Shown here: piece by piece, positions 1-13,408 of the stretch
Layout of the letters: each line of letters begins with the position of its first letter
Position numbering within the stretch: the first letter of the stretch is position 1
IMG/VR virus record: IMGVR_UViG_2700989274_000003
Origin: a virus
Taxonomy: Duplodnaviria; Heunggongvirae; Uroviricota; Caudoviricetes
Length of the DNA: 13,408 bases
Strand: one strand, 5' to 3'
Notes under the pieces: generated by a model
Seen by the model: the letters and a program-made list of their open reading frames with translations, nothing else
Told to the model about the DNA's origin: nothing
The model's database searches: none
Program-made: the position numbers and the translations under genes

Positions 1-1
1 A

Positions 2-1282
2 TTAATTTTTCATTGCTTCGTTATGGGGCATGGTTGGGGCAAACTCGCTTAACTGTGTATTTAACAAAGCTACCTGTGCATTATTGTTTTCAGACATCCA
101 TTTTCCGTATACCTGAAATACCATTTGCGCATCTGCATGGCCCATCTGGTTTGCTATAAATGCCGGGTTAGCACCAGCTGTCAGCGACCAGCAGGCATAA
201 GTATGTCTCGACTGATATGATTTTCGATGGCGGAGTCCGGCACGTTTTATCGCTGCGTCCCACATCTGCCTTATTGAGTCAACGGTAAAATGGTCACCAT
301 AATTTTTTACTCTCGCTGACACTTCAGGTTGAAAAACAAAGGTGCATTTATGTTTTTCTGTTCTGCCATACTCTCTGAGGTGAACATCAATGATATGCTC
401 TTTGCTCAGTCTCGTTAATGTCATCTGACTCCGGAGAGCGTCGATTGCTGGCTTAATAAGATGAATGACCCGATTGGTTCCCGCCTGTGTTTTTGGTACC
501 GTGAAACGGTCTTTTGCTAAATTTCTCCTGATCATCATTGTTCCATTTTTCAGATCTATGTCCTCCCATCCAAGTGCACACAGCTCACCAGGGCGAACGC
601 CAGTATAAACAGAAACACACCATAAATTTTTGGCTTGCTGATTTCTGCACGCATCGATAAGACGGATGAATTCCTCCCGCGAAAGAGGATCCGGAATGGT
701 TCTTGATTCCTTTAATGGCGAGATCCCCTTAAACGGGTTATCTGCCAGGTAACCGTTATCAACACCAAACTGGAACACGGCGTTAAGATTTGTCATGTAA
801 TTATTTACAGTTACAGCCGATCTCCCTGGTTGTGTAACAATATAGTTACTTTTGGGGATCTGGTATCCAGTCAGTAGCTCTTTACGAACCTCCAGTAATT
901 TTTCTTTATTAATCGATGAGGCAAGATTTTTTTCACCGATTATGCTCAGGATATTTTTGATGACGGCACGGTATGTGTTGAGTGATGTTTTTGCGACTTC
1001 AGTTTCTTTCAGTGCCAGAAATTTTTCAGCCAGTTCTTTTATGGTTAAATCTTGTCGGGTCTCACCAAATTTTTCCAGATTGCGTGAGGAGGGAAACTGT
1101 TTTGCATAGTCGAAAACACCAGTTTTTATTGCGTAACAAACAGAGGCGCGTAGCTCACCTGCAACGCGCCTGTTTTTTGCTGTGTCAGGAACCCCCAGGT
1201 TTTCCCTGACTCTTACGCCTTTATAAACAAACCAGATACGTAATTTCCCTCCATGGTTTTCCACGCCTGTCGGATATTTCAT
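2..1282 (-). CDS. int: Phage tyrosine integrase (site-specific recombinase)
   Basis: ORF 2..1297 on minus strand with TAA stop at 2-4. The C-terminal region carries tyrosine-recombinase-like motifs (SRHTYACW, MGHADAQMVFQVYGKW). Start is probably ATG 1282 (MKYPTGVE..., weak GAGA SD) rather than 1297, which has no SD. It sits at the prophage edge; the att site would lie left of the window. Confidence 0.88.
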   Translation of the reverse strand: MKYPTGVENHGGKLRIWFVYKGVRVRENLGVPDTAKNRRVAGELRASVCYAIKTGVFDYAKQFPSSRNLEKFGETRQDLTIKELAEKFLALKETEVAKTSLNTYRAVIKNILSIIGEKNLASSINKEKLLEVRKELLTGYQIPKSNYIVTQPGRSAVTVNNYMTNLNAVFQFGVDNGYLADNPFKGISPLKESRTIPDPLSREEFIRLIDACRNQQAKNLWCVSVYTGVRPGELCALGWEDIDLKNGTMMIRRNLAKDRFTVPKTQAGTNRVIHLIKPAIDALRSQMTLTRLSKEHIIDVHLREYGRTEKHKCTFVFQPEVSARVKNYGDHFTVDSIRQMWDAAIKRAGLRHRKSYQSRHTYACWSLTAGANPAFIANQMGHADAQMVFQVYGKWMSENNNAQVALLNTQLSEFAPTMPHNEAMKN

Positions 1283-1316
1283 TTCAATTTCTCTCATTAG
1301 TTAGTGTGGCTTTTAG

Positions 1317-1568
1317 TCAAGTAAGATGACGTCTTGGTCTTGCTGATGCCTGGCGCTCAATCCAGCGATCAATTTCTTCCAGGTTGTAAAAGCATGGACT
1401 GTTATCCCATGGCATACCGTCATGAGCGACATGCTTATATTCCCTTCCTTCCATAAACGATTTTTCCCGGGCCTTTTTTAACGTACCTTTTTTTATTCCT
1501 TTCAGCGCAATTAACTGCTCTTCGGATACCCATTTGCCGGGAGAGACAATCATGATTACTTCGCTCAT
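1317..1568 (-). CDS. xis: Putative excisionase / small DNA-binding protein directly upstream of int
   Basis: 83-aa ORF immediately upstream of and co-oriented with int, the classic xis position. Assignment is by position and size only. Confidence 0.5.
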   Translation of the reverse strand: MSEVIMIVSPGKWVSEEQLIALKGIKKGTLKKAREKSFMEGREYKHVAHDGMPWDNSPCFYNLEEIDRWIERQASARPRRHLT

Positions 1569-1640
1569 CGATTTCTTTATCTCTTACATCAGACGAGCGC
1601 CGGTTGCAGAATACCAGTCACAACCGGCGACAGTTGAACA

Positions 1641-4112
1641 TTAAGAATCAGCCTGACTCGGGATCAGTTTTTGCCAGATAACTGAAACGTATTTTGCCTG
1701 GTAACGGGCGTCATCAAGTGCATTATGGCGCTCACCTTCGAATGGAATAGCCGTTCTGGCATCGAAGTCTATGGCTTTCCCCAGCTCAACGATTGTGCGT
1801 ACATCGCGATCGTTGTAGTAACGCCACGGGCAGGGGATCCCCTGCCGTTCGTATGAACGGCGCAAAATCGTGTTGTCGAAGTTGGCTCCATTTCCCCAGA
1901 CCTGAACAAAAAATTCACCGGAGTTTTCGTCGATAAATTCCCACAATTGTAACAGTGCATCATCTAACGGGATTTCATCGGTCATAATGGCAGATTGCGC
2001 TTCGCGTGATTGCTTAAGCCACCATTTAATGGTGTCCCGATCAATGACTCCGCCAGCAGTTTCCAGATCGATAGTCTTACTAAATTCCGGTCCCATATCT
2101 CCGGTTTGCGGATCGAAAAATATTGCACCTATTGAGATGATCGGGGCATCAGGATTTTTTCCCATGGTTTCAAGGTCGATCATTAGATGGTCACACGTCC
2201 TGCTGGTGGATGTGATTTCTTGATGACCGTTCACCTTAATTGAGTGATCTGCCGTCTCGCCAGTTTCATTATCGCTATCGTGATGCTGATTGCCGCCAGT
2301 GTTCTCCTTGTGTGGATGTTCAGCGCCTTCCATTTCCTCCGGATCATCTTCCTGAACTTCAATCTGATACTCTTCATCGAATGTTTCCTGGTATGTTGCG
2401 TCGCCCATTACCGCGCCACAATCAGGGCAGTTGCCGCCGCCGGTCTGACCGCAGGCGGTGCAGACTTTTTCCACTTCCTGTTGCGCCACTGATTCAGGCT
2501 GTTTCGTTTCTGGCTCGTTTTGTAACGCATTTGGGCTGTTTTGTTCCGCTTTTTGGTAGTTCCGTTCCGATTCATGCTGGTTCTGGTTCACAGAATCGCG
2601 GGTCTGGATCCCCTTAACCCATTTCGGATCATTCGGGTCACTAATCCCTTCAACAAATTCACCACGTGATGCAGCAAGCAACTTATCGGCGTCAGGCTGG
2701 ATGATATTGGCTGCCTGCATAATTTTGTTTACTTCGTCAGCGGTAACTTTTATCGGCTCTGGTTGTTCTGAATCTTCAGCGGTATCTACATTTTGCGGTA
2801 AGCCCGTGTATGTGCCATTTTTTCGGGCAAAATATTCTTCTTTTGTGATTTCAGTGGCGCCAGCAGCCAGTGCCTTATCCAGACCAGAAAGTTTGTTTGC
2901 GCGACCGTATTTTTCTCCGTCCTTATCTGCGAAGAGGAAATAGAACGGCCCCTCACGCTCTACAGATGGTTCAGCTTCCGGCGCGGTTTCATTTTTTGGG
3001 ATATCAGATACCTCAGTTTCCACTGCATCAGTTTGTGTTTCTGATGACTGGAGAACATCAACAGTGCCCAGGTCTGTTTCTTCATTCTCAAACACGCCCT
3101 TTGTCGTCAGGTATTCGCAGATATATTTGTTCAGTGCTACGGGATCTTTGTGAATGTCGATCGGACGCTCACGGACAAGGCCAAAAATAGTTTGGCGGTC
3201 GTAGCGAAGGGCATCAGGCTGTTTGCGCATTGATGCCGAGATACGCTTCCAGTCTTCGCGGTCGTTGTCGATAACTTCATTTTTTGCCCAGCGATGGATG
3301 CTGCCGTCAATGTTTCCGGCATCCACATCACCAGGCCAGAGAGCGTAGGCCAGTTCGTCATCCAGTGTTTTCCATGTCTGCTTGTATTCGCGATGAATGG
3401 CAGCAATGACCGGGCTGATTTTTCCTGTTGAATTTTCAGTGTACTGTTGATTGGCTCTGGCGCGGGCGAGATCAACAACAGACGTGTATTTTCCGGTTTC
3501 CTTGCGTTCACCTTCGCGACGTTTTTTCCAGATGCGCATCTCTGCCTGAATTTCGGGCCATTTAGCACCAGGAATACATTTATGCTTAACCCACCCAATG
3601 GCGTGCAACTTAAGCTCCGGATACATGGCGTTAACTTCTGGCATTTTCATCAACGCTTCAACGATATGTCCGTCGAATGTTGCCATGTCTTCCTGCAACA
3701 ATTCCTGTGCGCTAATAACCATATCAACGGTGATGTTTTCACATGTGTCGAACTTAACCATGACAGCGTTCTGTACTTCAGGGGCCAGCTTGTCAAAAGT
3801 GACGTTCATCGGATCGGATTCAGTCTCAACCGGGACAAAAGAAGCAGACTCCTCATCCCAGCGGTTTTCCTGCATATATTCAGCATCCCATGAATCGAGG
3901 GCAGGGCGGGGTATGCCAGGTTTATCCTCGCAGACAATAAATTTATAAGCGCAGTCCTGAGCAGCCGGATAATGTTCCAGGAATTGCCAGTGAAATTTTG
4001 CTCGAGCACGGCGTTCGTCGCCAGCTTCAATGGCTGTGGCTACAGCCACAGCGCCTTCTTCCCTTGTTGCCAGTTCGTCAGGAATAGCGGCGCAAATAAA
4101 GACTTTACTCAT
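1641..4112 (-). CDS. Large phage exonuclease (often annotated exodeoxyribonuclease VIII-like) with C-terminal DEDDh 3'-5' exonuclease domain and internal zinc ribbon
   Basis: ORF 1641..4148; likely start is ATG 4112 (MSKVF..., GAGGT SD about 9 nt upstream). C-terminal about 200 aa carry DEDDh motifs: IDLETMG, VWGNGANFDNTIL, HNALDDARYQA. CTACGQTGGGNCPDCG (coding about 2411-2465) looks like a CxxC...CxxC zinc ribbon. Acidic low-complexity linkers. Confidence 0.8.
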   Translation of the reverse strand: MSKVFICAAIPDELATREEGAVAVATAIEAGDERRARAKFHWQFLEHYPAAQDCAYKFIVCEDKPGIPRPALDSWDAEYMQENRWDEESASFVPVETESDPMNVTFDKLAPEVQNAVMVKFDTCENITVDMVISAQELLQEDMATFDGHIVEALMKMPEVNAMYPELKLHAIGWVKHKCIPGAKWPEIQAEMRIWKKRREGERKETGKYTSVVDLARARANQQYTENSTGKISPVIAAIHREYKQTWKTLDDELAYALWPGDVDAGNIDGSIHRWAKNEVIDNDREDWKRISASMRKQPDALRYDRQTIFGLVRERPIDIHKDPVALNKYICEYLTTKGVFENEETDLGTVDVLQSSETQTDAVETEVSDIPKNETAPEAEPSVEREGPFYFLFADKDGEKYGRANKLSGLDKALAAGATEITKEEYFARKNGTYTGLPQNVDTAEDSEQPEPIKVTADEVNKIMQAANIIQPDADKLLAASRGEFVEGISDPNDPKWVKGIQTRDSVNQNQHESERNYQKAEQNSPNALQNEPETKQPESVAQQEVEKVCTACGQTGGGNCPDCGAVMGDATYQETFDEEYQIEVQEDDPEEMEGAEHPHKENTGGNQHHDSDNETGETADHSIKVNGHQEITSTSRTCDHLMIDLETMGKNPDAPIISIGAIFFDPQTGDMGPEFSKTIDLETAGGVIDRDTIKWWLKQSREAQSAIMTDEIPLDDALLQLWEFIDENSGEFFVQVWGNGANFDNTILRRSYERQGIPCPWRYYNDRDVRTIVELGKAIDFDARTAIPFEGERHNALDDARYQAKYVSVIWQKLIPSQADS

Positions 4113-4204
4113 TTGTTTTAACCTCATGACAGATTTAAGGATGAACAAATCCCTGCCATTGCTGGCATATAAGAATGAAACCGGATATTTATTACGGAAC
4201 TGTT

Positions 4205-4396
4205 TTAAAGACCTGCCGGGATTTCGATATTATCCTGGTGAATAACTTTATCGACCGGGTAACAGTTACCGGGAATTTTCTGTTCGGTTGCTGCAGTCAT
4301 ACACTCCTGCATTGTCCTGTGAACACTGACTGCAATATCAACTGGCTCTCCGGAAACAAGAAAAACTGTCAGAACAAGCACAAATGCTGAATTCAT
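4205..4396 (-). CDS. Small protein with N-terminal signal-peptide-like hydrophobic segment (hypothetical)
   Basis: ATG 4396 overlaps the stop of the upstream gene as ATGA (translational coupling). Product MNSAFVLVLTVFLVSGEP... is 63 aa with two Cys. The longer ORF 4205..4450 has no better start. Confidence 0.5.
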   Translation of the reverse strand: MNSAFVLVLTVFLVSGEPVDIAVSVHRTMQECMTAATEQKIPGNCYPVDKVIHQDNIEIPAGL

Positions 4397-4581
4397 TGTG
4401 CACATCCTTTTGGCATCAGACGTAAACGAGCCAGCATTGAAACAATGCATATTTTATTTAATAGCTCCCGTTCTTGTTTTCTCTTGTTAATGGCATCTTC
4501 AGTAAATACTGGGTTACTGATAGTGACACCAATTTCAAAACAACCTTCAGACGTATTAACGTTTGGTAATAACGTTTTCAT
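4393..4581 (-). CDS. Hypothetical small protein (62 aa), early-left operon
   Basis: Start ATG 4581 (MKTLLPNV...) is preceded by GAGGA SD at about 7 nt. Stop TGA overlaps the next gene's ATG. The upstream part of ORF 4393..4686 lacks an RBS. Confidence 0.5.
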   Translation of the reverse strand: MKTLLPNVNTSEGCFEIGVTISNPVFTEDAINKRKQERELLNKICIVSMLARLRLMPKGCAQ

Positions 4582-4750
4582 TATCGCGTCCTCAACAATG
4601 AATTTTGTGATGCAGTGCCTGGTGCCTCCAGGTGACGTTAACCAGTTAACAATTAACGCCGGATACAGAGAATCCACCCATAACACTGTTTTTGGTTTTA
4701 ACTGTTCCGCGTGCGCTCAGCCGCATTCACCACATCACAAAATTCACTTT

Positions 4751-4793
4751 AAAAAGGGCGGCAGAGCAGTCACGGAGTAAAACTGATACCGCC
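4751..4793 (-). terminator. Possible intrinsic terminator on minus strand (GC stem GGCGG/CCGCC, long loop, U5 tail)
   Basis: Minus strand reads GGCGG-(26 nt)-GCCGCCC-TTTTT. The loop is unusually long, so this is weak. Confidence 0.2.
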
Positions 4794-5148
4794 AAACGTC
4801 ACCAGAAAATTGATAACAGAGGGCGTTGCAGCGGGGTTGTCACTTAAGCGTATGGTCAACCTGACAACCCGGTGTCCTCAACGGGGAAGAAATAACCCCG
4901 CCATACTTACCGCCGCACCATTTCGCGGGTTGCCACAACCGGAAGCGCACGGTCGACGAAAATTTAACGACAGGCTATCTATGAACCAGCTACCTCGCCG
5001 TGCGCTTTCGCGTTATGGTCTGACTTTTCAGGGAAATATCCTTTCAGTAAACTGTCAGTGCCGGATGCTCACCCGTGTCCGGCGCACGCACTCCACCTCA
5101 CCCGTGGAGAACTCCTTAATTACCAACCTTAGCTTCGTTGGTTAGCTA

Positions 5149-5367
5149 TTAACGCGGGTATGTAATCATTCTGGCAATGCTTAATGCCGCTGCTTTTTCC
5201 AGATTGGTGATATCCTGCTCCAGAGCGGACAGATTTTCAGCCTGCTTAGCCCTGGCTTCATTGGCCCATTTCAGATCCTGCGCTGCATTAATTTTCTGGC
5301 GCATCCACTCATAAAGTTCATCATCGGTATAGTCTGGCGCGATGATGACGGGTTCTCGTTTCTGCAT
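5149..5367 (-). CDS. Hypothetical protein (72 aa, predicted coiled coil)
   Basis: ORF with GAGGAA SD about 5 nt upstream of ATG 5367. Last gene of a tightly packed three-gene leftward operon. Confidence 0.55.
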   Translation of the reverse strand: MQKREPVIIAPDYTDDELYEWMRQKINAAQDLKWANEARAKQAENLSALEQDITNLEKAAALSIARMITYPR

Positions 5368-5396
5368 ACTGATTCCTCGCGGTGCTGTTTCGCTTA

Positions 5397-5525
5397 TCAG
5401 CCGTTAGATTTTGCCGAACTGGAAAGCGCCTGTTTAAATTCGTTGAAGCTGTGAGCTTCTTCGCCTTCGGCAAGGCCTTCGAAGTATTCTTCGTAAGCCT
5501 TTTCCATGATTGTGTCAAAATCCAT
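5397..5525 (-). CDS. Small acidic protein (42 aa; MDFDTIMEKAYEEYFEGLAEGEEAHSFNEFKQALSSSAKSNG), not in supplied ORF track
   Basis: Hand-translated from the minus strand. ATG at 5525-5523 is preceded by AGGTGA SD and lies 1 nt after the upstream gene's TGA (TGAtATG). Stop TGA at 5399-5397. Fills the gap between the 78-aa and 72-aa genes. Confidence 0.45.
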   Translation of the reverse strand: MDFDTIMEKAYEEYFEGLAEGEEAHSFNEFKQALSSSAKSNG

Positions 5526-5526
5526 A

Positions 5527-5763
5527 TCACTCACCTGAGTTTCTTTCCAGCCAGCGACGGGCACCATTTTCGGTTTTAAACGTTTTGCTTTTGGTATACG
5601 TCATTGCGGTGAAGGTGCCGTCCTGGTTTGGAAACACGCCGTACACCAGAGATTCGTTGTTGCCAAGATCGATAGTATCCATGCTGACCTCATTTCCCCT
5701 TAACGCCGGGGTAGCGGAACAAAAACCTGCTGCATAGTTATTAAAGTTGAACCCTGCCGTCAT
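5527..5763 (-). CDS. Hypothetical protein, first gene of leftward early operon (78 aa; alternative start ATG 5682 gives 51 aa)
   Basis: ORF 5527..5763. GAGG SD is 9 nt upstream of ATG 5763; the internal ATG 5682 also has a GAGG SD at 5 nt. No recognisable N-like arginine-rich motif. Confidence 0.5.
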   Translation of the reverse strand: MTAGFNFNNYAAGFCSATPALRGNEVSMDTIDLGNNESLVYGVFPNQDGTFTAMTYTKSKTFKTENGARRWLERNSGE

Positions 5764-5861
5764 GTTCTTACGCCTCGGGCTGGCTACTTAACCCCTGACC
5801 ACTGCCTGGTAACTCGAAGTATTGCCCTGCATTCTGTAGGATGGGGTGAGGGAATGAATGA

Positions 5862-5890
5862 AGTTTAGAAAGACGAACTTTCCAGGTCAA
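5862..5890 (-). promoter_or_regulatory. Candidate leftward early promoter (PL-like): -35 TTGACC, 17-bp spacer, -10 TAAACT
   Basis: On the minus strand: TTGACC (plus 5885-5890), 17 bp, TAAACT (plus 5862-5867). Lies between the cI stop (5975) and the first leftward gene. A GTTTTGAT operator-like motif (5901-5908) is adjacent. Confidence 0.3.
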
Positions 5891-5974
5891 TGTTTTTTTA
5901 TCAAAACATTTTAAGCAGGCAGCTGTTAAGCCATCACCACGATGGCATACAGTTAATCAAATAGATGAGGTTGG

Positions 5975-6613
5975 TTAAATATCTTGTTGAATTTTAAAGC
6001 ATACGCCCAATATGCAAGATAGATCATCCAGCATAATTGAAGGGTAGCGAGGATTCGTGGGGACTAAAAGAATATCCGGCCCTTCTATCTCCAGTTTACG
6101 AATGACAGGTGTTGTGGTCCCTTTGGGTAAGGCAAGGACAATATTTCCTGGTTGTACGGTTCGATCGGGATCAACAAAAACTGTTGAACCATTTGGGATG
6201 GAAACTCCCCCACCAGATGTTGACATACTGTCACTCTCTAGAACAACTGCAAAGGTATTGACCGGGATTTCTCCGACAAGCTGCACACAAGAGGTTATTG
6301 AGGAATTTTTCATATAATCACTCCAGCTTGCTGCCTGCTGAAGTGATAGTAGCGGAACCGTTTTTATCGGCGGTAAAGATAGATCAAGCGAATCACCTGT
6401 ATTTAACTCTCCTCCATTAAGAAGCCAATTTTCGTTTACTTTCAATATTTTTGCCAGTGAACTTATGTAACGCGAGGACGGCGCTCCTCCACCGTTCATC
6501 CATTGACTTACGGAGCCTTTTGATGCGCCAGTGCCATTGACAAGGTCTTTGCCTTTCAGGTTTAGCGCATGCATACGTTGGGTTATGCGTTCAGATATAG
6601 TTTGCTTGCTCAT
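5975..6613 (-). CDS. cI: cI-like prophage repressor (N-terminal HTH, C-terminal S24 LexA-like autopeptidase domain)
   Basis: 212-aa ORF. N-terminus has an HTH-like segment (GASKGSVSQWMNGG). C-terminus has S24 signatures: Ser in VVLESDSMS and Lys in PVIRKL. Divergent from the cro-like gene. No SD upstream; -10 TAAAAT (plus 6620-6625) sits 7 nt from the ATG, suggesting a leaderless PRM-type transcript. Confidence 0.88.
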   Translation of the reverse strand: MSKQTISERITQRMHALNLKGKDLVNGTGASKGSVSQWMNGGGAPSSRYISSLAKILKVNENWLLNGGELNTGDSLDLSLPPIKTVPLLSLQQAASWSDYMKNSSITSCVQLVGEIPVNTFAVVLESDSMSTSGGGVSIPNGSTVFVDPDRTVQPGNIVLALPKGTTTPVIRKLEIEGPDILLVPTNPRYPSIMLDDLSCILGVCFKIQQDI

Positions 6614-6704
6614 GTTTTGATTTTAAAACACAGATGGTTTTGTTTCTTGACTTTCTTTGGTTTTGATTATTAAACTTTTGACGTTCAGTTTTATGGAGCG
6701 ACTC
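6614..6704. promoter_or_regulatory. Immunity-region divergent promoter/operator segment (OR-like) between cI and cro-like genes
   Basis: 91-bp intergenic region. Repeated GTTTTGATT-type motifs at 6614-6622 and 6659-6669, and TTTTGA at 6676-6681. Candidate PR -35 TTGACT at 6647-6652. Candidate PRM -10 TAAAAT on the minus strand at 6620-6625. Confidence 0.45.
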
Positions 6705-6935
6705 ATGAAAAAATCAGAAGTATTAGGCTATTTTGGCGGAGTTGTTAAAACAGCCGCAGCTCTAGGAACGTCAAAAACCACAGTCAGCATGTGGGGGGAA
6801 GAGGTTCCGTGGAAATGGGCGTTGCTAATTCAGGCAGTCACTGCCGGGGCGCTCAAATATGAGTTACACATACCGACGGTTGTCATTCCCGGTTCTGATC
6901 ATAATCCGCCTTCTAACCAAGGGGGGGATTCATGA
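6705..6935 (+). CDS. Cro/YdaS-like HTH regulator
   Basis: ATG 6705 with GGAG SD 6 nt upstream. HTH-like GGVVKTAAALGTSKTTVSMWGE resembles the Cro/YdaS family. Divergent from cI. Stop overlaps the next gene's ATG as ATGA. Confidence 0.78.
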   Translation: MKKSEVLGYFGGVVKTAAALGTSKTTVSMWGEEVPWKWALLIQAVTAGALKYELHIPTVVIPGSDHNPPSNQGGDS

Positions 6936-7357
6936 AAATCAAGCATGAACACATCCGCATGGCGATGAATGCCTGGGCGCATCCGGACGGCGAAAAAGTA
7001 CCGGCTGCGAAAATTACCAAAGCGTATTTCGAGCTGGGAATGACGTTCCCGGAACTGTATGACGACAGCCATCCGGAAGCCCTGGCTCGCAATACCCAGA
7101 AAATTTTCCGCTGGGTAGAGAAAGACACCCCTGATGCAGTTGAAAAAATTCAGGCGTTGTTACCAGCGATCGAAAAGGCAATGCCACCTTTGCTGGTGGC
7201 CAGAATGCGCAGCCACAGTTCAGCTTATTTTCGGGAGCTGGTGGAGACGCGGGAGCGACTGGTGAGAGACGCTGATGATTTTGTCGCAGTGGCAATCGCC
7301 GGTTTCAATCAGATGAACCGTGGTGGCCCGGCAGGAAATGCTGTGGCAGTACATTGA
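6932..7357 (+). CDS. YdaT-like (CII-analogue) regulatory protein
   Basis: 141-aa ORF translationally coupled to the cro-like gene, in the position of cII/ydaT. The N-terminus MKIKHEHI... is recalled from the Rac YdaT family, from memory only. Confidence 0.6.
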   Translation: MKIKHEHIRMAMNAWAHPDGEKVPAAKITKAYFELGMTFPELYDDSHPEALARNTQKIFRWVEKDTPDAVEKIQALLPAIEKAMPPLLVARMRSHSSAYFRELVETRERLVRDADDFVAVAIAGFNQMNRGGPAGNAVAVH

Positions 7358-7428
7358 CTGACAATAGCCATATCGAATCGCTTCCGGCAACTCGTGAGTA
7401 AAAAGATTCGGTATCAGAAGAGGTGAGT

Positions 7429-8499
7429 ATGGCTAACGCCTGGCTCAGATTATGGCATGACATGCCAAATGACCCTAAGTGGCGAACAATTGCCAGGGTG
7501 TCAGGGCAGCCAATTGCAACAGTGATGGCAGTGTATATCCACCTCCTGGTGAGCGCGTCACGAAATGTCACGCGAGGTCACATTGATGTCACGACAGAAG
7601 ATTTGGCAAGTGCGCTCGACGTGACAGAAGAGGTAATTGATTCAATTTTGCAGACGATGCAGGGGCGGGTACTTGATGGTGATTTAATCACTGGATGGGA
7701 AAAACGCCAGGTGCTGAAAGAGGACAACGGCAATATTTCGCAAACCGCAAAATCTCCGGCAGAGCGCAAGAGGGCGCAGCGAGAGAGGGAAAGAAAGCGG
7801 GAACAAAATGGCGATTGTCACGGCGCGTCACGAAATGTCACGCACATGTCACGACGAGTCACGACAGATAAAGATACAGATAAAGATACAGATCAAGAAG
7901 ATCAAAACACTATGGTCCATGGCGTAAAAAACGCCACGAACCAGGCAGGGGATGTTCAGACCGTCAATCCTGGTCAGCCAGCAGGCACGACACCGGAAGC
8001 CGATTCAGCGTATGCGCTGAAAGCCGATTCGGGCGCTGTGCAGCAGGTGATGACCCCAAGGCCGGAGCAATCACACCAACTGCAGCAGCCTGAAGCCGAT
8101 TCCGCCATTCAGCGGGAAGCCGATCGGGTAGTCCCGGAAAACACCGGGCTGTCTGTGGGACGAGTGGATTATCCGGATGTGTTCGAACAGGTCTGGCGGG
8201 AGTACCCGTTGCGTGCCGGAGCAAACCCGAAGAAATCCGCTTTCAGTGCCTGGAAGGCCAGATTACGCGAGGGGGTGCCACCAGAGGCCATGCTGGATGG
8301 CGTGAGGCGTTACGCAAGATACTTGGCGGCTACCGGGAAAACGGGAACGGAATTTGTTCAGCGAGCGACGACGTTTTTTGGACCGGACCGGAATTTTGAG
8401 AACCCCTGGTTGCTCCCGGTAAGCGGCACGAACAACCAGCGTTGTGTGAATCATATTTCTGAACCGGATACCGAAATTCCACCGGGCTTCAGGGGGTAA
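7429..8499 (+). CDS. Phage replication initiation protein (O-like), containing intragenic origin iterons
   Basis: ORF 7423..8499; ATG 7429 (MANAWLRLW...) is preceded by GAGGTG SD. It occupies the O-gene position after cro/cII-like genes and carries iteron arrays plus an AT-rich tract internally, as lambda O carries ori-lambda. The central linker is low-complexity (EADS repeats, KRAQRERERKRE). Confidence 0.7.
   Translation: MANAWLRLWHDMPNDPKWRTIARVSGQPIATVMAVYIHLLVSASRNVTRGHIDVTTEDLASALDVTEEVIDSILQTMQGRVLDGDLITGWEKRQVLKEDNGNISQTAKSPAERKRAQRERERKREQNGDCHGASRNVTHMSRRVTTDKDTDKDTDQEDQNTMVHGVKNATNQAGDVQTVNPGQPAGTTPEADSAYALKADSGAVQQVMTPRPEQSHQLQQPEADSAIQREADRVVPENTGLSVGRVDYPDVFEQVWREYPLRAGANPKKSAFSAWKARLREGVPPEAMLDGVRRYARYLAATGKTGTEFVQRATTFFGPDRNFENPWLLPVSGTNNQRCVNHISEPDTEIPPGFRG
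7553..7593. repeat. Iteron cluster 1: four GTCAC(G/A) repeats phased at 10-11 bp
   Basis: GTCACG at 7557, 7567 and 7588, and GTCACA at 7577. A 21-bp segment GCGCGTCACGAAATGTCACGC (7553-7573) is identical to 7824-7844. Confidence 0.6.
7817..7910. repeat. Iteron cluster 2 (five GTCACG repeats at 10-11 bp phasing) followed by AT-rich tract with 12-bp tandem duplication; putative replication origin
   Basis: GTCACG at 7817, 7827, 7837, 7848 and 7858. This is followed by GATAAAGATACA x2 (7867-7890) and the A/T-rich GATCAAGAAGATCAAAACAC. The iteron-then-AT-rich layout matches lambda-type ori. Confidence 0.6.
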
Positions 8500-8539
8500 G
8501 TGTTGATTTCTGGTCATGAGGTAATTTTCAGGAGGGCTT

Positions 8540-8962
8540 GTGGCAAAAGTTTTTACACAAGAAGAGCGAGAAAAAATTAAAGGGCAGGTTGTTGAACTCG
8601 TACGCCAGAGTGGGCGTGAGACGTTACGGCAACTGGAAGTCAAGACAGGTGCGACAAGATATCTGATGAGCGTTCTCGCAAGAGAGCTGGTTGCCAGCGG
8701 CGATGTATACAACTCCGGCTACGGGTTATTCCCCTCTGAACAGGCGCGTAAGGACTGGCAAAACGCCCGCAAAAAACTCTCGAGGGCAAAGGTGAAGAAA
8801 CCTGCTGTGGTTGATCCGGACCTTATCTGGTCATCACCTGACGGAGAAATACGTCGCTACGACAGTCGCCTAAACATAATCTGTCGCGAGTGCCGGAAGA
8901 GTGAAGCTATGCAGCGTGTACTGGCTTTCTATCAGGGTAATTTTCAGGAGGCGGTACTGTGA
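8540..8962 (+). CDS. Hypothetical protein (140 aa)
   Basis: GTG start 8540 with AGGAGG SD (8530-8535). The 16-bp RBS segment GGTAATTTTCAGGAGG is repeated exactly before the next gene. No family recognised. Confidence 0.6.
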   Translation: MAKVFTQEEREKIKGQVVELVRQSGRETLRQLEVKTGATRYLMSVLARELVASGDVYNSGYGLFPSEQARKDWQNARKKLSRAKVKKPAVVDPDLIWSSPDGEIRRYDSRLNIICRECRKSEAMQRVLAFYQGNFQEAVL

Positions 8963-9376
8963 GTGAAATTAGCTATCAGGCTTCAATTACCGCTGGCATT
9001 CGCATCAAAGGAGAGGAGCATGGAAATAAAACCAGAGGATGAGTTAAGCAATATCGTTTTATTTCCGGTAAAAGAGGATGACCCTCGTAATCAGGTTAAT
9101 TTTCTTTATGAGCCATCGGAAAGACCATATTGTCATCACGCCTCTGTCCGGGTTGACGAAAAAGAGCGTCAGGTCCGCTGTAAAATCTGCGGTGCAGTTG
9201 TGGAGCCATTTGACTGGATGCTCTCTGTGGCGAAAAGAGAAACCAGACTGGCAGATGATGTAAGGCTCTTGCGTCAGGAGGAGCGGGAAAGGCGAAAAAA
9301 TATAGAAAAGCTAATTCAGATTGAGCGTAACGCGAAAGCGCGGATACGCAGGGCGACAAAATCCAGAACTGAATAA
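8963..9376 (+). CDS. Hypothetical protein with CHH...CxxC putative zinc-binding motif and C-terminal basic coiled coil (alternative start ATG 9020)
   Basis: ORF 8963..9376. GTG 8963 follows the repeated AGGAGG segment; ATG 9020 has a strong GGAGAGGAG SD. Motif YCHHASVRVDEKERQVRCKICG, then LLRQEERERRKNIEKLIQIERNAKARIRR. Confidence 0.6.
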   Translation: MKLAIRLQLPLAFASKERSMEIKPEDELSNIVLFPVKEDDPRNQVNFLYEPSERPYCHHASVRVDEKERQVRCKICGAVVEPFDWMLSVAKRETRLADDVRLLRQEERERRKNIEKLIQIERNAKARIRRATKSRTE

Positions 9377-9469
9377 TTAAATTTAGCTCTGTTAAAAATT
9401 TAATCCTTAACCGGAGGGATTTCTGCACCCTCAGAACATCAGGAGGCCGCCCGAAAGGGCGGTAGTTAA

Positions 9470-9652
9470 ATGCGAAAGTTTAAAATAATTATTGAAACGG
9501 GAATAGCCGGTGGAGATTTCGAGGATGAATTCGAAGTGGATGATGATGCGACGCCTGATGAAATACATGACGAAGCAAAAGATATTTTCTTTAACTACTG
9601 CAATTACTCATATCACGAAATAAAAGACGAAGAGGAAGAACAAAATGGCTGA
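9470..9652 (+). CDS. Small highly acidic protein (60 aa)
   Basis: Product MRKFKIIIETGIAGGDFEDEFEVDDDATPDEIHDEAKD...KDEEEEQNG. AGGAGG (9441-9446) is separated from the ATG by a GC hairpin with a GAAA loop (9447-9462). Overlaps the next ORF by 8 nt. Confidence 0.5.
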   Translation: MRKFKIIIETGIAGGDFEDEFEVDDDATPDEIHDEAKDIFFNYCNYSYHEIKDEEEEQNG

Positions 9653-9821
9653 TTTTGGTTCAACTAAATACAACGTCAGTTTTGAAGAATGGCATGAACT
9701 GTTAATGGACTATGCAGAGTTACGTGGTGGCAGTGCTGCTGATGCTGAAGCATGGCGTGATGATTATGAAGCAGGAAAAACTCCGGTCGAAGCATATTGT
9801 GATGAGTGGGGCGATGAATGA
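9645..9821 (+). CDS. Small acidic protein (58 aa; MADFGSTKYNVSFEEWHELLMDYAELRGGSAADAEAWRDDYEAGKTPVEAYCDEWGDE), not in supplied ORF track
   Basis: Hand-translated. ATG 9645 with GAGGA SD about 8 nt upstream. Overlaps the upstream gene (ATGGCTGA) and the downstream gene (ATGA at 9818-9821). Confidence 0.5.
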   Translation: MADFGSTKYNVSFEEWHELLMDYAELRGGSAADAEAWRDDYEAGKTPVEAYCDEWGDE

Positions 9822-10134
9822 GCGAGGTTAATTATCAGGAAGGGCATGAAACGGCGGGGCAAGCAAAAACAGTGGCATGGCGATATCGCTACGTGAAAAA
9901 AAAGGCGTTACGGACTTTCAGGGGAAGTAGTGGTCTGGTGACTGGAAATATGTACCGAAAAAAGAGGATTGTAACGACAGGCCGAACTATGAAATTCAGG
10001 CCTTATTCACTGCCCCGCCAGTCCCGGTTACATCAGAAGAACTGGTTAAAGCTGTGCACTTTTATGAACAACTAAAACGCGAAAATCCACCAGCATCCGG
10101 AAACCTGATTACAGATTCCCAGATAAGGCAATGA
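9818..10134 (+). CDS. Hypothetical gene with frame discontinuity: frame A (9818...) carries two in-frame A AAA AAG heptamers; the protein-like downstream frame (9931..10134) is the -1 frame and has no start codon
   Basis: ATG 9818 is coupled to the upstream gene. Frame A after 9905 is R/K-rich and looks out-of-frame. The -1 frame 9931-10134 (…KEDCNDRPNYEIQALFTAPPVPVTSEELVKAVHFYEQLKRENPP…) looks protein-like but opens directly after a TAG (9928-9930) with no ATG/GTG/TTG. Heptamers at 9898-9904 and 9958-9964. Confidence 0.35.
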
Positions 10135-10230
10135 GCTACCTGGCGCAGAACGGGCTGATAAGTATGGGGAATGTTTTACGATGAATATTTAGACTAAAGA
10201 GTTTGTAACGCTATGTAAGTGATTTTTTCT

Positions 10231-10258
10231 GGTTTAGATATTTATATGTCCGGCCAAA
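10231..10258. repeat. Imperfect direct repeat copy 1 (GGTTTAG..ATATTTA..TGTCCGG..CAAA) upstream of the small membrane-protein gene
   Basis: Roughly 80% identical to 10502-10533 by eye, with indels. The two copies bracket the 59-aa gene. Confidence 0.4.
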
Positions 10259-10304
10259 TTGAGGTGTGTTTAAATGTAATTGCACATTGATTGTAGGAGG
10301 AATA

Positions 10305-10484
10305 ATGAAAAACGCATTGCAGTTTTTGTTTGTTGCGTTCTGGTTGTTCGTATCATGTATGCCCATCATCTTCACAGCAAGGTATATGGAAAAAGTTGAT
10401 GTTTTGATATTAATATTTGGATATATAAATGCCCTTTTTTTAGGGGTGTTCATGGCGGTCATGTGCATTGAATACTGGCGGTAA
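10305..10484 (+). CDS. Small hydrophobic protein, two predicted TM helices (59 aa), in AT-rich island
   Basis: ATG 10305 with AGGAGG SD (10295-10300). Product MKNALQFLFVAFWLFVSCMPIIFTARYMEKVDVLILIFGYINALFLGVFMAVMCIEYWR. Surrounding DNA (about 10140-10560) is markedly AT-rich. ORF track start 10266 has no RBS. Confidence 0.55.
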   Translation: MKNALQFLFVAFWLFVSCMPIIFTARYMEKVDVLILIFGYINALFLGVFMAVMCIEYWR

Positions 10485-10501
10485 ATACAGCGAACGCCAT
10501 T

Positions 10502-10533
10502 GGTTTAGTTGGATATTTACTGTGCCGGACAAA
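10502..10533. repeat. Imperfect direct repeat copy 2, immediately upstream of the hok promoter region
   Basis: GGTTTAGTTGGATATTTACTGTGCCGGACAAA, compared by eye with 10231-10258. Confidence 0.4.
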
Positions 10534-10538
10534 AACGG

Positions 10539-10567
10539 TTTGCGGGGAAATCTTAGTTAAGTAGAAT
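10539..10567 (+). promoter_or_regulatory. Candidate hok mRNA promoter (-10 TAGAAT at 10562-10567, weak -35 about 10539-10545)
   Basis: TAGAAT lies about 7 nt upstream of the 5' fold-back element (10572-10585), where the hok mRNA 5' end is expected. Confidence 0.35.
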
Positions 10568-10629
10568 GACTGCGGGTGCTTGAGGCTATCTGTCTCAGGC
10601 ATGAACACCAAAAGGCAGATAGAGAAAAG

Positions 10630-10694
10630 CCCCAGTTAACATTACGCGTCCTGCAAGACGCTTAACATTAATCTGAGGCCATATCTATGCGACA
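10630..10694 (-). ncRNA. sok: Predicted Sok-like antisense RNA (coordinates approximate)
   Basis: Minus-strand sigma70-like promoter: -35 TTGACC (plus 10724-10729), 16-bp spacer, -10 GCTAAT (plus 10702-10707). The transcript would be antisense to the mok SD (GAGG 10675-10678) and start codon (10687). The 3' end is not defined; no clean terminator was found by eye. Confidence 0.3.
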
Positions 10695-10746
10695 CATAGA
10701 GATTAGCCTCTTACGGACCGAAAGGTCAAGGAGAAGCAGGCTATGA
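10687..10746 (+). CDS. mok: mok-like upstream reading frame (19 codons) translationally coupled to hok
   Basis: ATG 10687 with GAGG SD 8 nt upstream. Stop TGA at 10744-10746 overlaps the hok ATG 10743-10745 (ATGA). Much shorter than R1 mok. Confidence 0.4.
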   Translation: MRHIEISLLRTERSRRSRL

Positions 10747-10898
10747 AGCAGCAAAAGGCGATGTTAATCGCCCTGATCGTCATCTGTTTAACCGTCATAG
10801 TGACGGCACTGGTAACGAGGAAAGACCTCTGCGAGGTACGAATCCGAACCGGCCAGACGGAGGTCGCTGTCTTCACAGCTTACGAACCTGAGGAGTAA
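10743..10898 (+). CDS. hok: Hok/Gef-family type I toxin (51 aa), HokD/RelF-like
   Basis: Product MKQQKAMLIALIVICLTVIVTALVTRKDLCEVRIRTGQTEVAVFTAYEPEE. Single N-terminal TM helix and the conserved TRKxLCE...EVAxFxAYE Hok signature. AGGAG SD 9 nt upstream. Confidence 0.9.
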   Translation: MKQQKAMLIALIVICLTVIVTALVTRKDLCEVRIRTGQTEVAVFTAYEPEE

Positions 10899-10966
10899 GA
10901 GACCTGGCGGGGGAGAAATCCCTCGCCACCTCTGATGTGTCAGGCATCCTCAACGCACCCGCACGT

Positions 10967-10995
10967 AACCCGCTTCGGCGGGTTTTGTTTTTTCC
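10967..10995 (+). terminator. Rho-independent terminator of hok mRNA (stem AACCCGC/GCGGGTT, UUCG loop, T-rich tail)
   Basis: AACCCGC-TTCG-GCGGGTT followed by TTGTTTTTT. It lies directly after the 3' fold-back element (10948-10962). Confidence 0.7.
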
Positions 10996-11065
10996 TGGCA
11001 TTCTGGTTTACAATTCGCACGCCAGCCTGAACAACTGGCACCTGCTGCGCCAGCAGAGACAACCG

Positions 11066-11344
11066 ATGGCGCACGATACCAAATTACACAATTCTAATGA
11101 TTCTGCCGTCTTTGCCAGTAGGTGCGGACGGCGTTTTCACGCATTCAAATCAGACTGGTTCCAGCATCCTCCATGCACTGAAGAGCAGGCGGAATGGATA
11201 ATTCAGTGTTACCGCAGGCGCGGATACGAGGTTAAGAAAGCTCTTAGCCTCGACTACCGTCACTGGATAATCTCAGTCAGACTCCCTTACTCCGAACGCC
11301 CACCGCGTTCATCCCGCACATACCAGCAACGGATCTGGAGGTAA
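11066..11344 (+). CDS. rem: Rem-like small protein (Qin-prophage rem position, between hok and ydfU)
   Basis: ORF 10937..11344; ATG 11066 (MAHDTKLHNS...) is the first start outside the hok terminator. Synteny hok-rem-ydfU-Q matches my recollection of K-12 Qin. The protein-level match is from memory, not searched. Confidence 0.5.
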   Translation: MAHDTKLHNSNDSAVFASRCGRRFHAFKSDWFQHPPCTEEQAEWIIQCYRRRGYEVKKALSLDYRHWIISVRLPYSERPPRSSRTYQQRIWR

Positions 11345-11345
11345 C

Positions 11346-12395
11346 GTGCGGGTATTACTTCGACCTGTTCTGGTACCGGAACTCGGGGTGGTGATCGTTA
11401 AGCCGGGCCGTGAATCCATGCCGGTATTCCACAATACCCGGGTACTGGTGGAGCCGGAACCGAAAAGCATGCGTAATCTGCCGTCCGGGGTCGTTCCTGC
11501 CGTTCGCCAGCCGCTGGTGGAAGACAAAACATTGCTGCCGTTTTTCAGTAACGCACGGGTGATTCGTGCTGCTGGTGGTGCTGGTGCATTGTCTGACTGG
11601 CTGTTGCGCCATATTAAATCCTGCCAGTGGCCACACGGCGATTATCACCACAGTGAAACCGTCATTCACCGTTATGGTACCGGCGCAATGGTGTTGTGCT
11701 GGCACTGCGACAACCAGCTGCGTGACCAGACATCCGAATCACTCGAGCAACTTGCTCATCAAAACCTGTCAGCATGGATGATTGACGTCATCGGTCACGC
11801 AATAAGCGGTACGCAGGAGCGTGAATTATCTCTGGCTGAATTATCCTGGTGGGCGGTCCGAAATCAGGTGGCGGATGCGCTACCTGAAGCGGTATTACGT
11901 CGCTCGCTGGGATTACCAGCGGAAAAAATCCGCTCAATGTACCGCGAAAGCGACATCGTACCGGGAGAGCAGACCGCCACCAGCATATTGAAACAGCGCA
12001 CAAAAAATCTTGCACTGTTGCCTCACGCCCACCAGGAACAACACCCACTACAGGAAAGGACGGTGGTAAGCATCACCGTTGATCCTGAGTCTCCGGAATC
12101 TTTCATGAAGCTACCTAAACGTCGCCGCTGGGTTAAGGAGAAATACACTCGCTGGGTGAAGACACAGCCGTGTGCTTGCTGCGGTATGCCAGCCGACGAT
12201 CCGCATCATCTGATTGGTCACGGGCAGGGCGGAATGGGAACCAAAGCACATGATCTTTTTGTGTTGCCTTTATGCAGAAAGCATCACGACGAACTGCATA
12301 CGGATACCGTGGCATTTGAAGAGAAGTATGGCTCCCAACTGGAGCTGATTTTTCGATTTATCGATCACGCGCTGGCAATTGGTGTGCTGGCCTAA
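11346..12395 (+). CDS. ydfU: YdfU-like DUF968 protein with C-terminal HNH-like CxxC..HH..C..HH motif
   Basis: 349-aa ORF with GTG start 11346 and GGAGG SD 5 nt upstream. Same length and position as Qin ydfU. C-terminus PCACCGMPADDPHHLIGHGQGGMGTKAHDLFVLPLCRKHHDELH resembles HNH endonuclease metal-binding signatures. Confidence 0.75.
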   Translation: MRVLLRPVLVPELGVVIVKPGRESMPVFHNTRVLVEPEPKSMRNLPSGVVPAVRQPLVEDKTLLPFFSNARVIRAAGGAGALSDWLLRHIKSCQWPHGDYHHSETVIHRYGTGAMVLCWHCDNQLRDQTSESLEQLAHQNLSAWMIDVIGHAISGTQERELSLAELSWWAVRNQVADALPEAVLRRSLGLPAEKIRSMYRESDIVPGEQTATSILKQRTKNLALLPHAHQEQHPLQERTVVSITVDPESPESFMKLPKRRRWVKEKYTRWVKTQPCACCGMPADDPHHLIGHGQGGMGTKAHDLFVLPLCRKHHDELHTDTVAFEEKYGSQLELIFRFIDHALAIGVLA

Positions 12396-12411
12396 TTTTG
12401 TGGAGTAAGTT

Positions 12412-12459
12412 GATGCGTGATATTCAGATGGTTCTTGAGCGTTGGGGAGCGTGGGCGGC
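12412..12459 (+). CDS. Antiterminator Q (phage 82/Qin QuuQ-like), 5' fragment only (16 codons) truncated by N gap
   Basis: ATG 12412 with GGAG SD 7 nt upstream. MRDIQMVLERWGAWAA matches the N-terminus of 82-type Q proteins as I recall them. The reading frame runs into the N run. Confidence 0.55.
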
Positions 12460-12469
12460 NNNNNNNNNN
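12460..12469. other. Run of 10 N (assembly or scaffold gap of unknown true length)
   Basis: nnnnnnnnnn in the sequence. The flanks differ sharply in GC content and gene content. Confidence 0.99.
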
Positions 12470-12628
12470 ATATGTACAGGCTCGCACCTGGGCTTGCCTG
12501 ACTGACCGCAGGCCGGCGACGACAAGGTGGAAAAGTTCGGCGTGTGGCTCTGGCGGCAACGATCCCGCGAAGGGCGGACGGTGCTTGAGCTGTTGAACGT
12601 AAGCATGCGGGCAAACCATCTTGCGCGA

Positions 12629-12790
12629 CTATGCCGGATGCCACCTATGCGGCAGCAGCTCTGCAATCTCACTAGCTCGCTGCGTCGGCAACCGTCTCAG
12701 CACATCCTTGAGATAGGCATACGGATCGTGCCCATTATTACGGGCCGACTGGATCAAACTCATGATCGCAGCAGCGCGCTTGAGCATGCG
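12629..12790 (-). pseudogene. IS66 transposase (TnpC) C-terminal fragment
   Basis: C-terminus ...RAAAIMSLIQSARNNGHDPYAYLKDVLRRLPTQRASEIAELLPHRWHPA resembles IS66 TnpC C-termini. The upstream part of ORF 12629..13408 is low-complexity and not transposase-like. Confidence 0.5.
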
Positions 12791-12811
12791 AACCCGCGCC
12801 GAGCATTTGAG

Positions 12812-13001
12812 AAGGCAACGGGATGAACGCTGGCTGGATAGCCGTGGTTTTCTGGGTAAGCAGGCGAATCCATTTGTGGACGAGGTTGGCATTGAGGCTG
12901 TAGCCCAAGGCGATGTTTGCGATGGAGGCACCGGGTTCAGAACACTCCTGAATGACCTGGGCCTTGAAAGATTTGCTGTAGGTACGGCGCTGAGGGCGCA
13001 T
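12812..13001 (-). pseudogene. IS66-family TnpA (orf1, HTH) N-terminal fragment
   Basis: MRPQRRTYSKSFKAQVIQECSEPGASIANIALGYSLNANLVHKWIRLLTQK...PAFIPLP, in a different frame from the TnpC fragment. tnpB and most of tnpC are absent. Confidence 0.45.
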
Positions 13002-13184
13002 GGAAAATCCGCTTGATGGGCCATGGCCTTCGGCGGCGGTGTCGGGAAGGTGTGTTGGCCGGACGGATACTGTTGAACTACGTTGTCTGGGGCAACGGAA
13101 GTGTTTCGGCCCGACTCTGGAACGCGATCCGCAGCGACGACTGGGCAATTCCGCACGTTGGCCTGAGCAGCCTCGGGGAAATCG

Positions 13185-13206
13185 TCGTCTGGGCGCGCCC
13201 AGACGA
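13185..13206. repeat. Perfect 22-bp palindrome TCGTCTGGGCGCGCCCAGACGA
   Basis: Seen directly in the sequence. GC-rich, with no T tract after it. Confidence 0.8.
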
Positions 13207-13408
13207 GTTTCCGCCAAGGAACATGCAGACAAGCAAGGGGCTGCGGGCACTCGGCTACAACGTGAGGATCGGTGTTTGATCGAGGCGCCTGTGGCACACG
13301 CAGGCTGAGGAGCCAGGCGCTGTCCATTGCCTGATCAGGCCGCCCCCCTGTGCCTTGCCTGAGCAGTTGACCTGCATCAATGGGGCGGGAGAACGCTGCA
13401 CATTGCAC

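Follow-up and report, generated by a model that had tools for sequence, protein, structure and literature searches.

A prophage Q antiterminator gene apparently cut beside an IS66 remnant in Escherichia coli RU1: a probable join of two unrelated contigs

The DNA stretch of 13,408 nucleotides analysed here in its whole length (hereafter the window) reads from a lambdoid prophage into the first codons of a Q antiterminator gene, then into a run of ten N, and behind them into GC-rich DNA with fragments of IS66 transposase genes. The locus raises the question whether a mobile element has knocked out the late-gene switch of the prophage or whether the two sides of the N run belong to different places in the genome. 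Both possibilities had been raised in an earlier note made from the letters of the window. There is little room for doubt, in our opinion, that the junction at 12460-12469 is an assembly artefact, namely an arbitrary join of two unrelated contigs, one from the prophage and one from the border of the heat-resistance island LHR/tLST. The features on which the discussion is based are the following.

11346-12395, plus strand: ydfU-like DUF968 gene (PF06147, E=1.2e-76), the last complete gene of the left (prophage) contig
12396-12459, no strand: candidate short repeat of 64 nt, bracketed by the break positions 12395, 12453 and 12459
12413-12459, plus strand: 5' end of a Q antiterminator gene, 15 codons and 2 nt (GC), PF06530 positions 1-17
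12460-12469, no strand: spacer of exactly 10 N, very probably between two concatenated contigs, which says nothing on adjacency or distance
12470-12483, no strand: outermost 14 nt of an IS256-family element; IS256-family matches from many unrelated contexts all end at 12483 (position 8013 of L001)
12484-12598, no strand: GC-rich LHR/tLST border DNA of 115 nt with no coding assignment, 100% identical in E. coli S1 and other complete genomes
12599-12811, minus strand: 3' end of an IS66-family element with the last ~60 codons of TnpC; stop codon at 12629-12631, PF13817 match at ~12647-12760
12629-13408, minus strand: almost certainly spurious call of a 259-aa gene across both IS66 fragments and intergenic DNA (10217-10996 in the source scaffold L023)
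12738-13001, minus strand: truncated IS66 TnpA, an 87-aa ORF that begins with ~66 residues (~12804-12992) from the N-terminal region of TnpA
13016-13279, plus strand: conserved 87-aa hypothetical ORF of the LHR border, a candidate gene (WP_001295708.1 in E. coli S1)

The DNA on the two sides of the spacer

The left ~12.4 kb of the window (1-12459) represent a Qin-type lambdoid prophage of E. coli with a GC content of 47.7%. The genes are arranged in the order integrase, excisionase, RecE-like exonuclease, ydfD, dicB, repressor, Cro, YdaT, replisome organizer, hokD, ydfU and Q, and in related complete genomes the prophage integrase adjoins rspB. The gene order including ydfU (DUF968) upstream of Q is the feature that this part of the window shares with the Qin-type prophages next to rspB. 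Among 5,426 complete E. coli genomes the best match to the ydfU region (10937-12459) has only 95-96.5% identity, compared with up to 98% for the remaining parts of the prophage. Nevertheless, the exact YdfU protein was found in 85 blocks of the protein collection, which belong largely to the RU1 series. The region of ydfU and the 5' end of Q is found at a median of 2 and a maximum of 13 places per complete E. coli genome.

Read from the ATG at 12413, the Q fragment is translated into MRDIQMVLERWGAW-A, which can also be given as MRDIQMVLERWGAWA plus two bases. When its 15 residues were padded with alanines, they matched positions 1-17 of the 118 positions of PF06530 (E=1.6e-6), and in NZ_CP098211 the Q CDS is annotated from the equivalent ATG. 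The earlier note had let the gene begin at 12412 and run directly into the N run; the truncation at the spacer was found as described, while the start has to be placed at 12413, which leaves 15 codons and 2 nt. Base for base, the fragment equals the 5' end of the intact 125-aa Q genes in L012, which is from the RU1 line MA5, and in L008, which is from another, unrelated strain. It agrees with lambdoid Q antiterminators of the PF06530 family in the position of the start codon and the first 15-16 residues; however, the complete ORF of ~125 aa is not in the window, where the contig end cuts it after 47 nt, whereas the gene is whole in the same clone (L012).

To the right of the spacer the DNA is clearly different. 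The 939 nt from 12470 to 13408 have a GC content of 60.2%, compared with 47.7% on the left, in agreement with the change in composition already described in the earlier note. When 938-939 nt of this flank were used as query, they proved 100% identical to the LHR border in E. coli S1 and in further strains; altogether, the segment was found in 148 of the 5,426 complete genomes of E. coli, and also in ~1,270 plasmids, mostly of Klebsiella. In E. coli S1 the segment is situated directly upstream of an HTH gene, sHSP20, clpK, ftsH, hsp20-GI, yfdX1 and yfdX2; the island lies there at mhpA beside IS256-family, IS3 and IS30 copies, and a similar location may be expected in RU1. The LHR has been described as an island with 61.8% GC (PMC4563881) and with mobile elements and transposases consistently at its flanks (PMC4563881; PMC8407380), and the clpK locus of Klebsiella plasmids has been reported by Bojer et al. 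2010 (PMC2976762). The corresponding gene set is also present on the source scaffold to the right of the window, where positions 11097-20093 of L023 encode HTH_17, sHSP20, a 960-aa ClpK, FtsH, sHSP-GI, YfdX1, YfdX2 and a DUF308/HdeD-like gene. Hence, right flank and scaffold share with LHR/tLST the 100% identical border, the island gene set, a GC content of ~60-61% and the flanking transposase remnants. There is nothing biologically different from the known island, but the window itself comprises only its non-functional border, in which IS remnants and one ORF of 87 aa are found; none of the heat-resistance genes is included. This ORF (13016-13279), for which no Pfam or NCBIfam match was found, sits between the IS66 remnant and LHR orf1, the HTH_17 gene that starts at the window-equivalent position 13509.

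The right end of the window has a simple origin. The 259-aa gene call on the minus strand, which has a family match only in its last ~40 residues and yet occurs in 1,712 blocks of the protein collection, starts at 13408 and thereby set the end of the window, which is hence not a contig end. Position 13408 was also considered as contig end or variant boundary, since plasmid matches stop at 13405; this reading was dismissed, because the matches end early owing to an indel close to the end of the query, and because the source scaffold runs on past 13408 without N.

The IS66 fragments in this flank are genuine. The TnpC remnant (12629-12811) matches PF13817 at 62.6 bits (cutoff 30; E=3.9e-17), and it covers positions 354-387 of the 387 positions of NF033517. 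The TnpA remnant matches NF047595 with E=1.1e-18 and 67.9 bits over positions 1-66 of 113, a score that stays under the cutoff of 74 bits because the protein is cut, and PF01527 with E=7.4e-7. Like the Q match, these profile matches are far beyond chance, and the TnpA and TnpC fragments reported on the minus strand by the earlier note were thereby verified. In E. coli S1 the 87-aa TnpA ORF corresponds to the RefSeq transposase WP_001247776.1. The ORF reads from TnpA into the TnpC fragment, which indicates that an internal deletion took the 3' end of TnpA, TnpB and most of TnpC; with both fragments overlapping in one ORF, no room is left for TnpB. The DDE catalytic core is absent, and only the last ~40-60 residues of TnpC are present. 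The GTAAGC at 12599 is presumably the IS66 terminus (GTAA-type) downstream of tnpC. An inverted-repeat pair with an 8-bp target duplication in Q was not found; only one terminus is possible, and it is located 139 nt from the Q fragment. Compared with the IS66 family (tnpA-tnpB-tnpC), the remnant agrees in the C-terminal element of TnpC, the N-terminal part of TnpA, the common strand and the canonical order, but it lacks TnpB, the DDE core and the other end, and being fixed in the LHR border it is neither an active nor a recent insertion. The constancy of the remnant in the LHR border across genomes and plasmids marks it as a fixed scar of this border. Judged from sequence comparison, it is an old scar that appears never to have touched Q.

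Between the IS66 remnant and the spacer, two further segments could be distinguished. The border DNA at 12484-12598 is common to plasmids of Klebsiella, Citrobacter and others, and the LHR matches of Klebsiella plasmids begin at 12484. The 14 nt before this position are the tip of an IS256-family element that is multi-copy in E. coli. The full 432-aa transposase of this element (PF00872) adjoins the LHR border in complete genomes and in RU1 MA5, whereas the window holds only the tip and the transposase gene is outside of it. The named element IS1414 is related to the LHR-abutting element at ~85% identity, while unnamed copies are closer (97%). No convincing pair of terminal inverted repeats was found for the IS256-family element, because its far end is disrupted by other insertions; hence, the IS boundary at 12483 rests on the point where many independent copies stop matching. 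Altogether, the statement in the earlier note that everything right of 12469 may be from another locus holds true, with the sequence from 12470 onward being the IS256 tip and the LHR border.

Among the plasmids, matches to the LHR border start at three nested positions, 12484, 12686 and 12889. The start at 12686, inside the TnpC fragment, is found in most Klebsiella plasmids, and the start at 12889 in some Enterobacter and Klebsiella plasmids. These nested starts indicate that the LHR border has been truncated repeatedly by other insertions.

Contig ends in the sister assemblies of E. coli RU1

The source of the window was observed directly. It is an exact substring of contig JRSJ01000056.1 in assembly GCA_001413745.1, and a 30-aa gene call that crosses the N gap is on record in this contig only. 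A table in PMC9638481 assigns GCA_001413745.1 to the line BHI3 of E. coli RU1 and its neighbours in accession order to the RU1 lines MA, LB and BHI. According to the RU1 paper (PMC4263409), these lines go back to one ancestor colony of a human stool isolate; propagation lasted from 500 to ~5,900 generations, and the lines were then sequenced on Illumina with paired 100-bp reads. How the deposited assemblies were built is not described in this paper. Sister assemblies were found by exact look-up of the YdfU protein and carry the WGS prefixes JRRN to JRSS. The so-called contigs of the series are 1.3-4.7 Mb long and contain 10-N runs, and the same 10-N spacer was found at every comparable N-marked join in the sister assemblies. 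With a query spanning the gap, both flanks together were found in none of the 5,426 complete E. coli genomes. An exact-pattern scan for both flanks within 0-30 nt gave no hit among the GTDB representatives, which comprise one genome per species and do not include the source.

As the RU1 lines share one ancestor, their assemblies could be compared base for base. Over 1346-12459 (11,114 nt) the window has no mismatch to L007, L010, L011 and L012, and in the sisters that break before 12459 every aligned base is identical over the shorter spans. The left contig end itself is followed by 10 N in eight sister assemblies and by eight different partners, as listed here with the last base in window numbering; the gene names of the partner loci are our reading of their Pfam content.

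L007: last base 12459 as in the window; 10 N, then an integrase and restriction-modification island
L010: last base 12459 as in the window; 10 N, then queG-amiB-mutL-hfq
L011: last base 12459 as in the window; 10 N, then acnA-ribA-pgpB
L006: last base 12453, 6 nt earlier; 10 N, then yahN/prpR
L003: last base 12395, the ydfU stop codon (TAA); 10 N, then zinT/yedYZ
L004: last base 12395, the ydfU stop codon (TAA); 10 N, then yegV-thiMD-rcnA
L005: last base 12395, the ydfU stop codon (TAA); 10 N, then ydcO/hicAB
L009: last base 12395, the ydfU stop codon (TAA); 10 N, then dmsCBA-serS
L012 (RU1 MA5): no break; Q intact with 125 aa (PF06530) and followed by blc, a ybgA-like gene and holin
L008 (unrelated strain, prophage 99.88% identical to that of the window): no break; as L012, 125-aa Q (PF06530) included, then on to lysozyme and terminase

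The recurrence of the same contig ends with different partners and the intact Q gene of MA5, in an assembly that runs unbroken through this region, are direct observations. The truncation of Q in the window is hence a contig end and not a biological event. The suspicion in the earlier note that the flanks are not contiguous was well founded, since the sisters break there into different loci, the right contig also occurs with varied partners, and MA5 assembles through Q. With the window included, the nine RU1 assemblies with a break end at 12395 (n=4), 12453 (n=1) or 12459 (n=4). These three positions bracket the 64 nt from 12396 to 12459, which suggests that this stretch contains a short exact repeat of about k-mer size, with another copy elsewhere in RU1, that broke the assembly graph. 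The rest of Q being generally multi-copy in E. coli was considered as another cause of the break and ruled out, because the remainder of the Q allele of the window is found at a median of 1 and a maximum of 4 places per complete E. coli genome. With the rest of Q being mostly single-copy, the repeat at the left break is a cause that we infer from the break positions.

Another 10-N join was noticed in L012 of RU1 MA5 at 15056-15065, where the holin region of the prophage is connected with a tRNA, an amino-acid permease and the wecG/wzyE region. The prophage of L008 goes on with lysozyme and terminase at this point, hence this second join is also arbitrary. In L008 (11068-21050) the late region is complete after Q and comprises a blc-like lipocalin, a ybgA-like gene, holin, lysozyme, DUF2514, a cold-shock gene, GnsAB and the Nu1/GpA terminase.

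The right contig shows the corresponding behaviour. LHR-carrying RU1 sisters were retrieved with the 259-aa ORF at 12629-13408. In RU1 LB9 (L027) and RU1 BHI7 (L030) the start of the LHR contig agrees to the base with that in the window, ATATGTACAGG, again after 10 N and with two other partners in front of it. In RU1 MA5 (L032) the LHR border is seen to be continuous with the complete IS256-family transposase, followed by an IS3-type fragment and an IS30-type gene, an arrangement that complete genomes also show. Hence, both true continuations are visible in one sister, because in MA5 the Q gene goes on as Q and the LHR goes on into the IS256-family element.

The multi-copy nature of the IS256-family element explains why the right contig ends there, as far as such reasons can be inferred for either contig. 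The partner contigs in L027 and L030 end, 56-64 nt left of the 10-N runs, in what we take to be IS1 termini (GGTGATGCTGCCAACTTACTG... and ...ATGACTCCAACTTATTGATAG...). The position of these presumed termini before the spacers would imply that many RU1 contigs stop ~56-64 nt inside IS elements. The right contig of the window enters its IS by only 14 nt, whereas other RU1 contig ends enter repeats by ~56-64 nt, hence the behaviour of the assembler is not fully understood.

A different situation was observed in RU1 LB12 (L028, ~4023, GCA_001413685.1). Its LHR contig reaches 84 nt further into the IS256-family element (~98 nt in all), where it passes directly, with no N in between, into an unrelated locus encoding a Na+/H+ exchanger and a peptidase S66. 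Hence, N runs do not mark every chimeric join of the RU1 series.

Explanations for the junction

The observation that started this analysis, genuine TnpC and TnpA fragments within 170-540 nt of the gap, would be expected if an IS66-family element had inserted into Q, truncated the late-gene antiterminator and made the prophage defective. The earlier note had considered that late-gene activation would be crippled in this way. Nevertheless, the fragment is a dead internal-deletion remnant without TnpB and DDE core, it occurs without any change in the LHR border of the complete genomes and plasmids mentioned above and thus in contexts without Q, and its terminus at 12599 is parted from the gap by the 115 nt of LHR border and the 14-nt IS256-family tip. 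A remnant that is dead, bound to the LHR border and not adjoining the gap, together with the intact Q of the sister MA5, excludes the insertion of IS66, to which we assign practically no probability. A more elaborate alternative starts from the IS256-family tip at the beginning of the right contig: a copy of this element might have inserted or recombined at Q during the evolution of BHI3, placing the LHR beside the 5' end of Q, and the gap would then conceal the IS. In favour of this explanation, rearrangements mediated by IS elements are known from evolution experiments. However, its insertion point would have to coincide to the base with the contig end in three lines that have other partners, the start of the LHR contig would have to coincide with that of two lines that again have other partners, the left contig end contains no IS bases, and such a junction is present in no complete genome. 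It is accordingly very improbable that an IS256-family-mediated rearrangement in part of the BHI3 population put the heat-resistance island beside the early region of the prophage; if it were true, the island would be prophage-linked cargo and Q would be inactivated.

The join could also be valid as it stands, supported by read pairs over a small unsequenced gap, so that the LHR lies directly beside the 5' end of Q in RU1. A fixed gap of 10 N is what some scaffolding programs insert between linked contigs at small or unknown distance, which would fit the spacer. Against a valid join stand the nine different right-hand partners of the left contig among lines of the same ancestor (the window counted), the several different left-hand partners of the LHR contig, and MA5 with its two true continuations. 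We consider such a valid join as still less probable than the rearrangement in BHI3. In the explanation that we prefer by far, the arbitrary join of two unrelated contigs, short-read contigs of RU1 BHI3 would have been concatenated to pseudo-scaffolds of megabase size, with a constant spacer of 10 N and not in their chromosomal order. The left contig would be the Qin-type prophage that ends 47 nt into Q, where a short repeat likely broke the assembly graph. The right contig would be the LHR border starting 14 nt inside the multi-copy IS256-family element, so that this contig end, too, would be due to a repeat. On the actual chromosome of RU1, Q would then be intact and followed by the rest of the prophage, and the LHR border would run into a complete IS256-family element at a different locus. 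The window agrees with fixed-length N spacers of draft assemblies, i.e. exactly 10 N, repeat-associated ends and inconsistent partners between replicate assemblies, and no difference was noted. All its components are already known, the Qin-type prophage with its PF06530 Q, the LHR/tLST border with the IS66 scar, the IS256-family element and the 10-N spacer. The IS66 remnant belongs to the LHR border and has no connection with Q, and the apparent disruption of Q is not real biology.

Consequences for RU1 and its assemblies

The value of this finding is mainly that of a warning. The window mimics a prophage with transposase cargo and a knocked-out late-gene switch, while the final 939 nt belong to a different locus. 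Anyone who accepted the join as it stands would be misled into assuming a defective prophage and, as ClpK and FtsH follow on the scaffold, also a heat-resistance island carried by a phage. The same caution applies to the RU1 assemblies GCA_0014129xx to GCA_0014139xx in general, whose megabase "contigs" are arbitrary concatenations, so that synteny or provirus boundaries across 10-N runs are unreliable.

In the searched parts of the RU1 paper (PMC4263409) no mention of heat resistance was found. As a by-product, our data indicate that RU1, a commensal from the stool of a healthy human that was used in a published evolution experiment, carries a complete-looking LHR/tLST. Finally, the near-identical prophage of L008 with its complete late region makes it conceivable that the prophage of RU1 is not a Qin-like relic and may be a full-length, possibly inducible phage.
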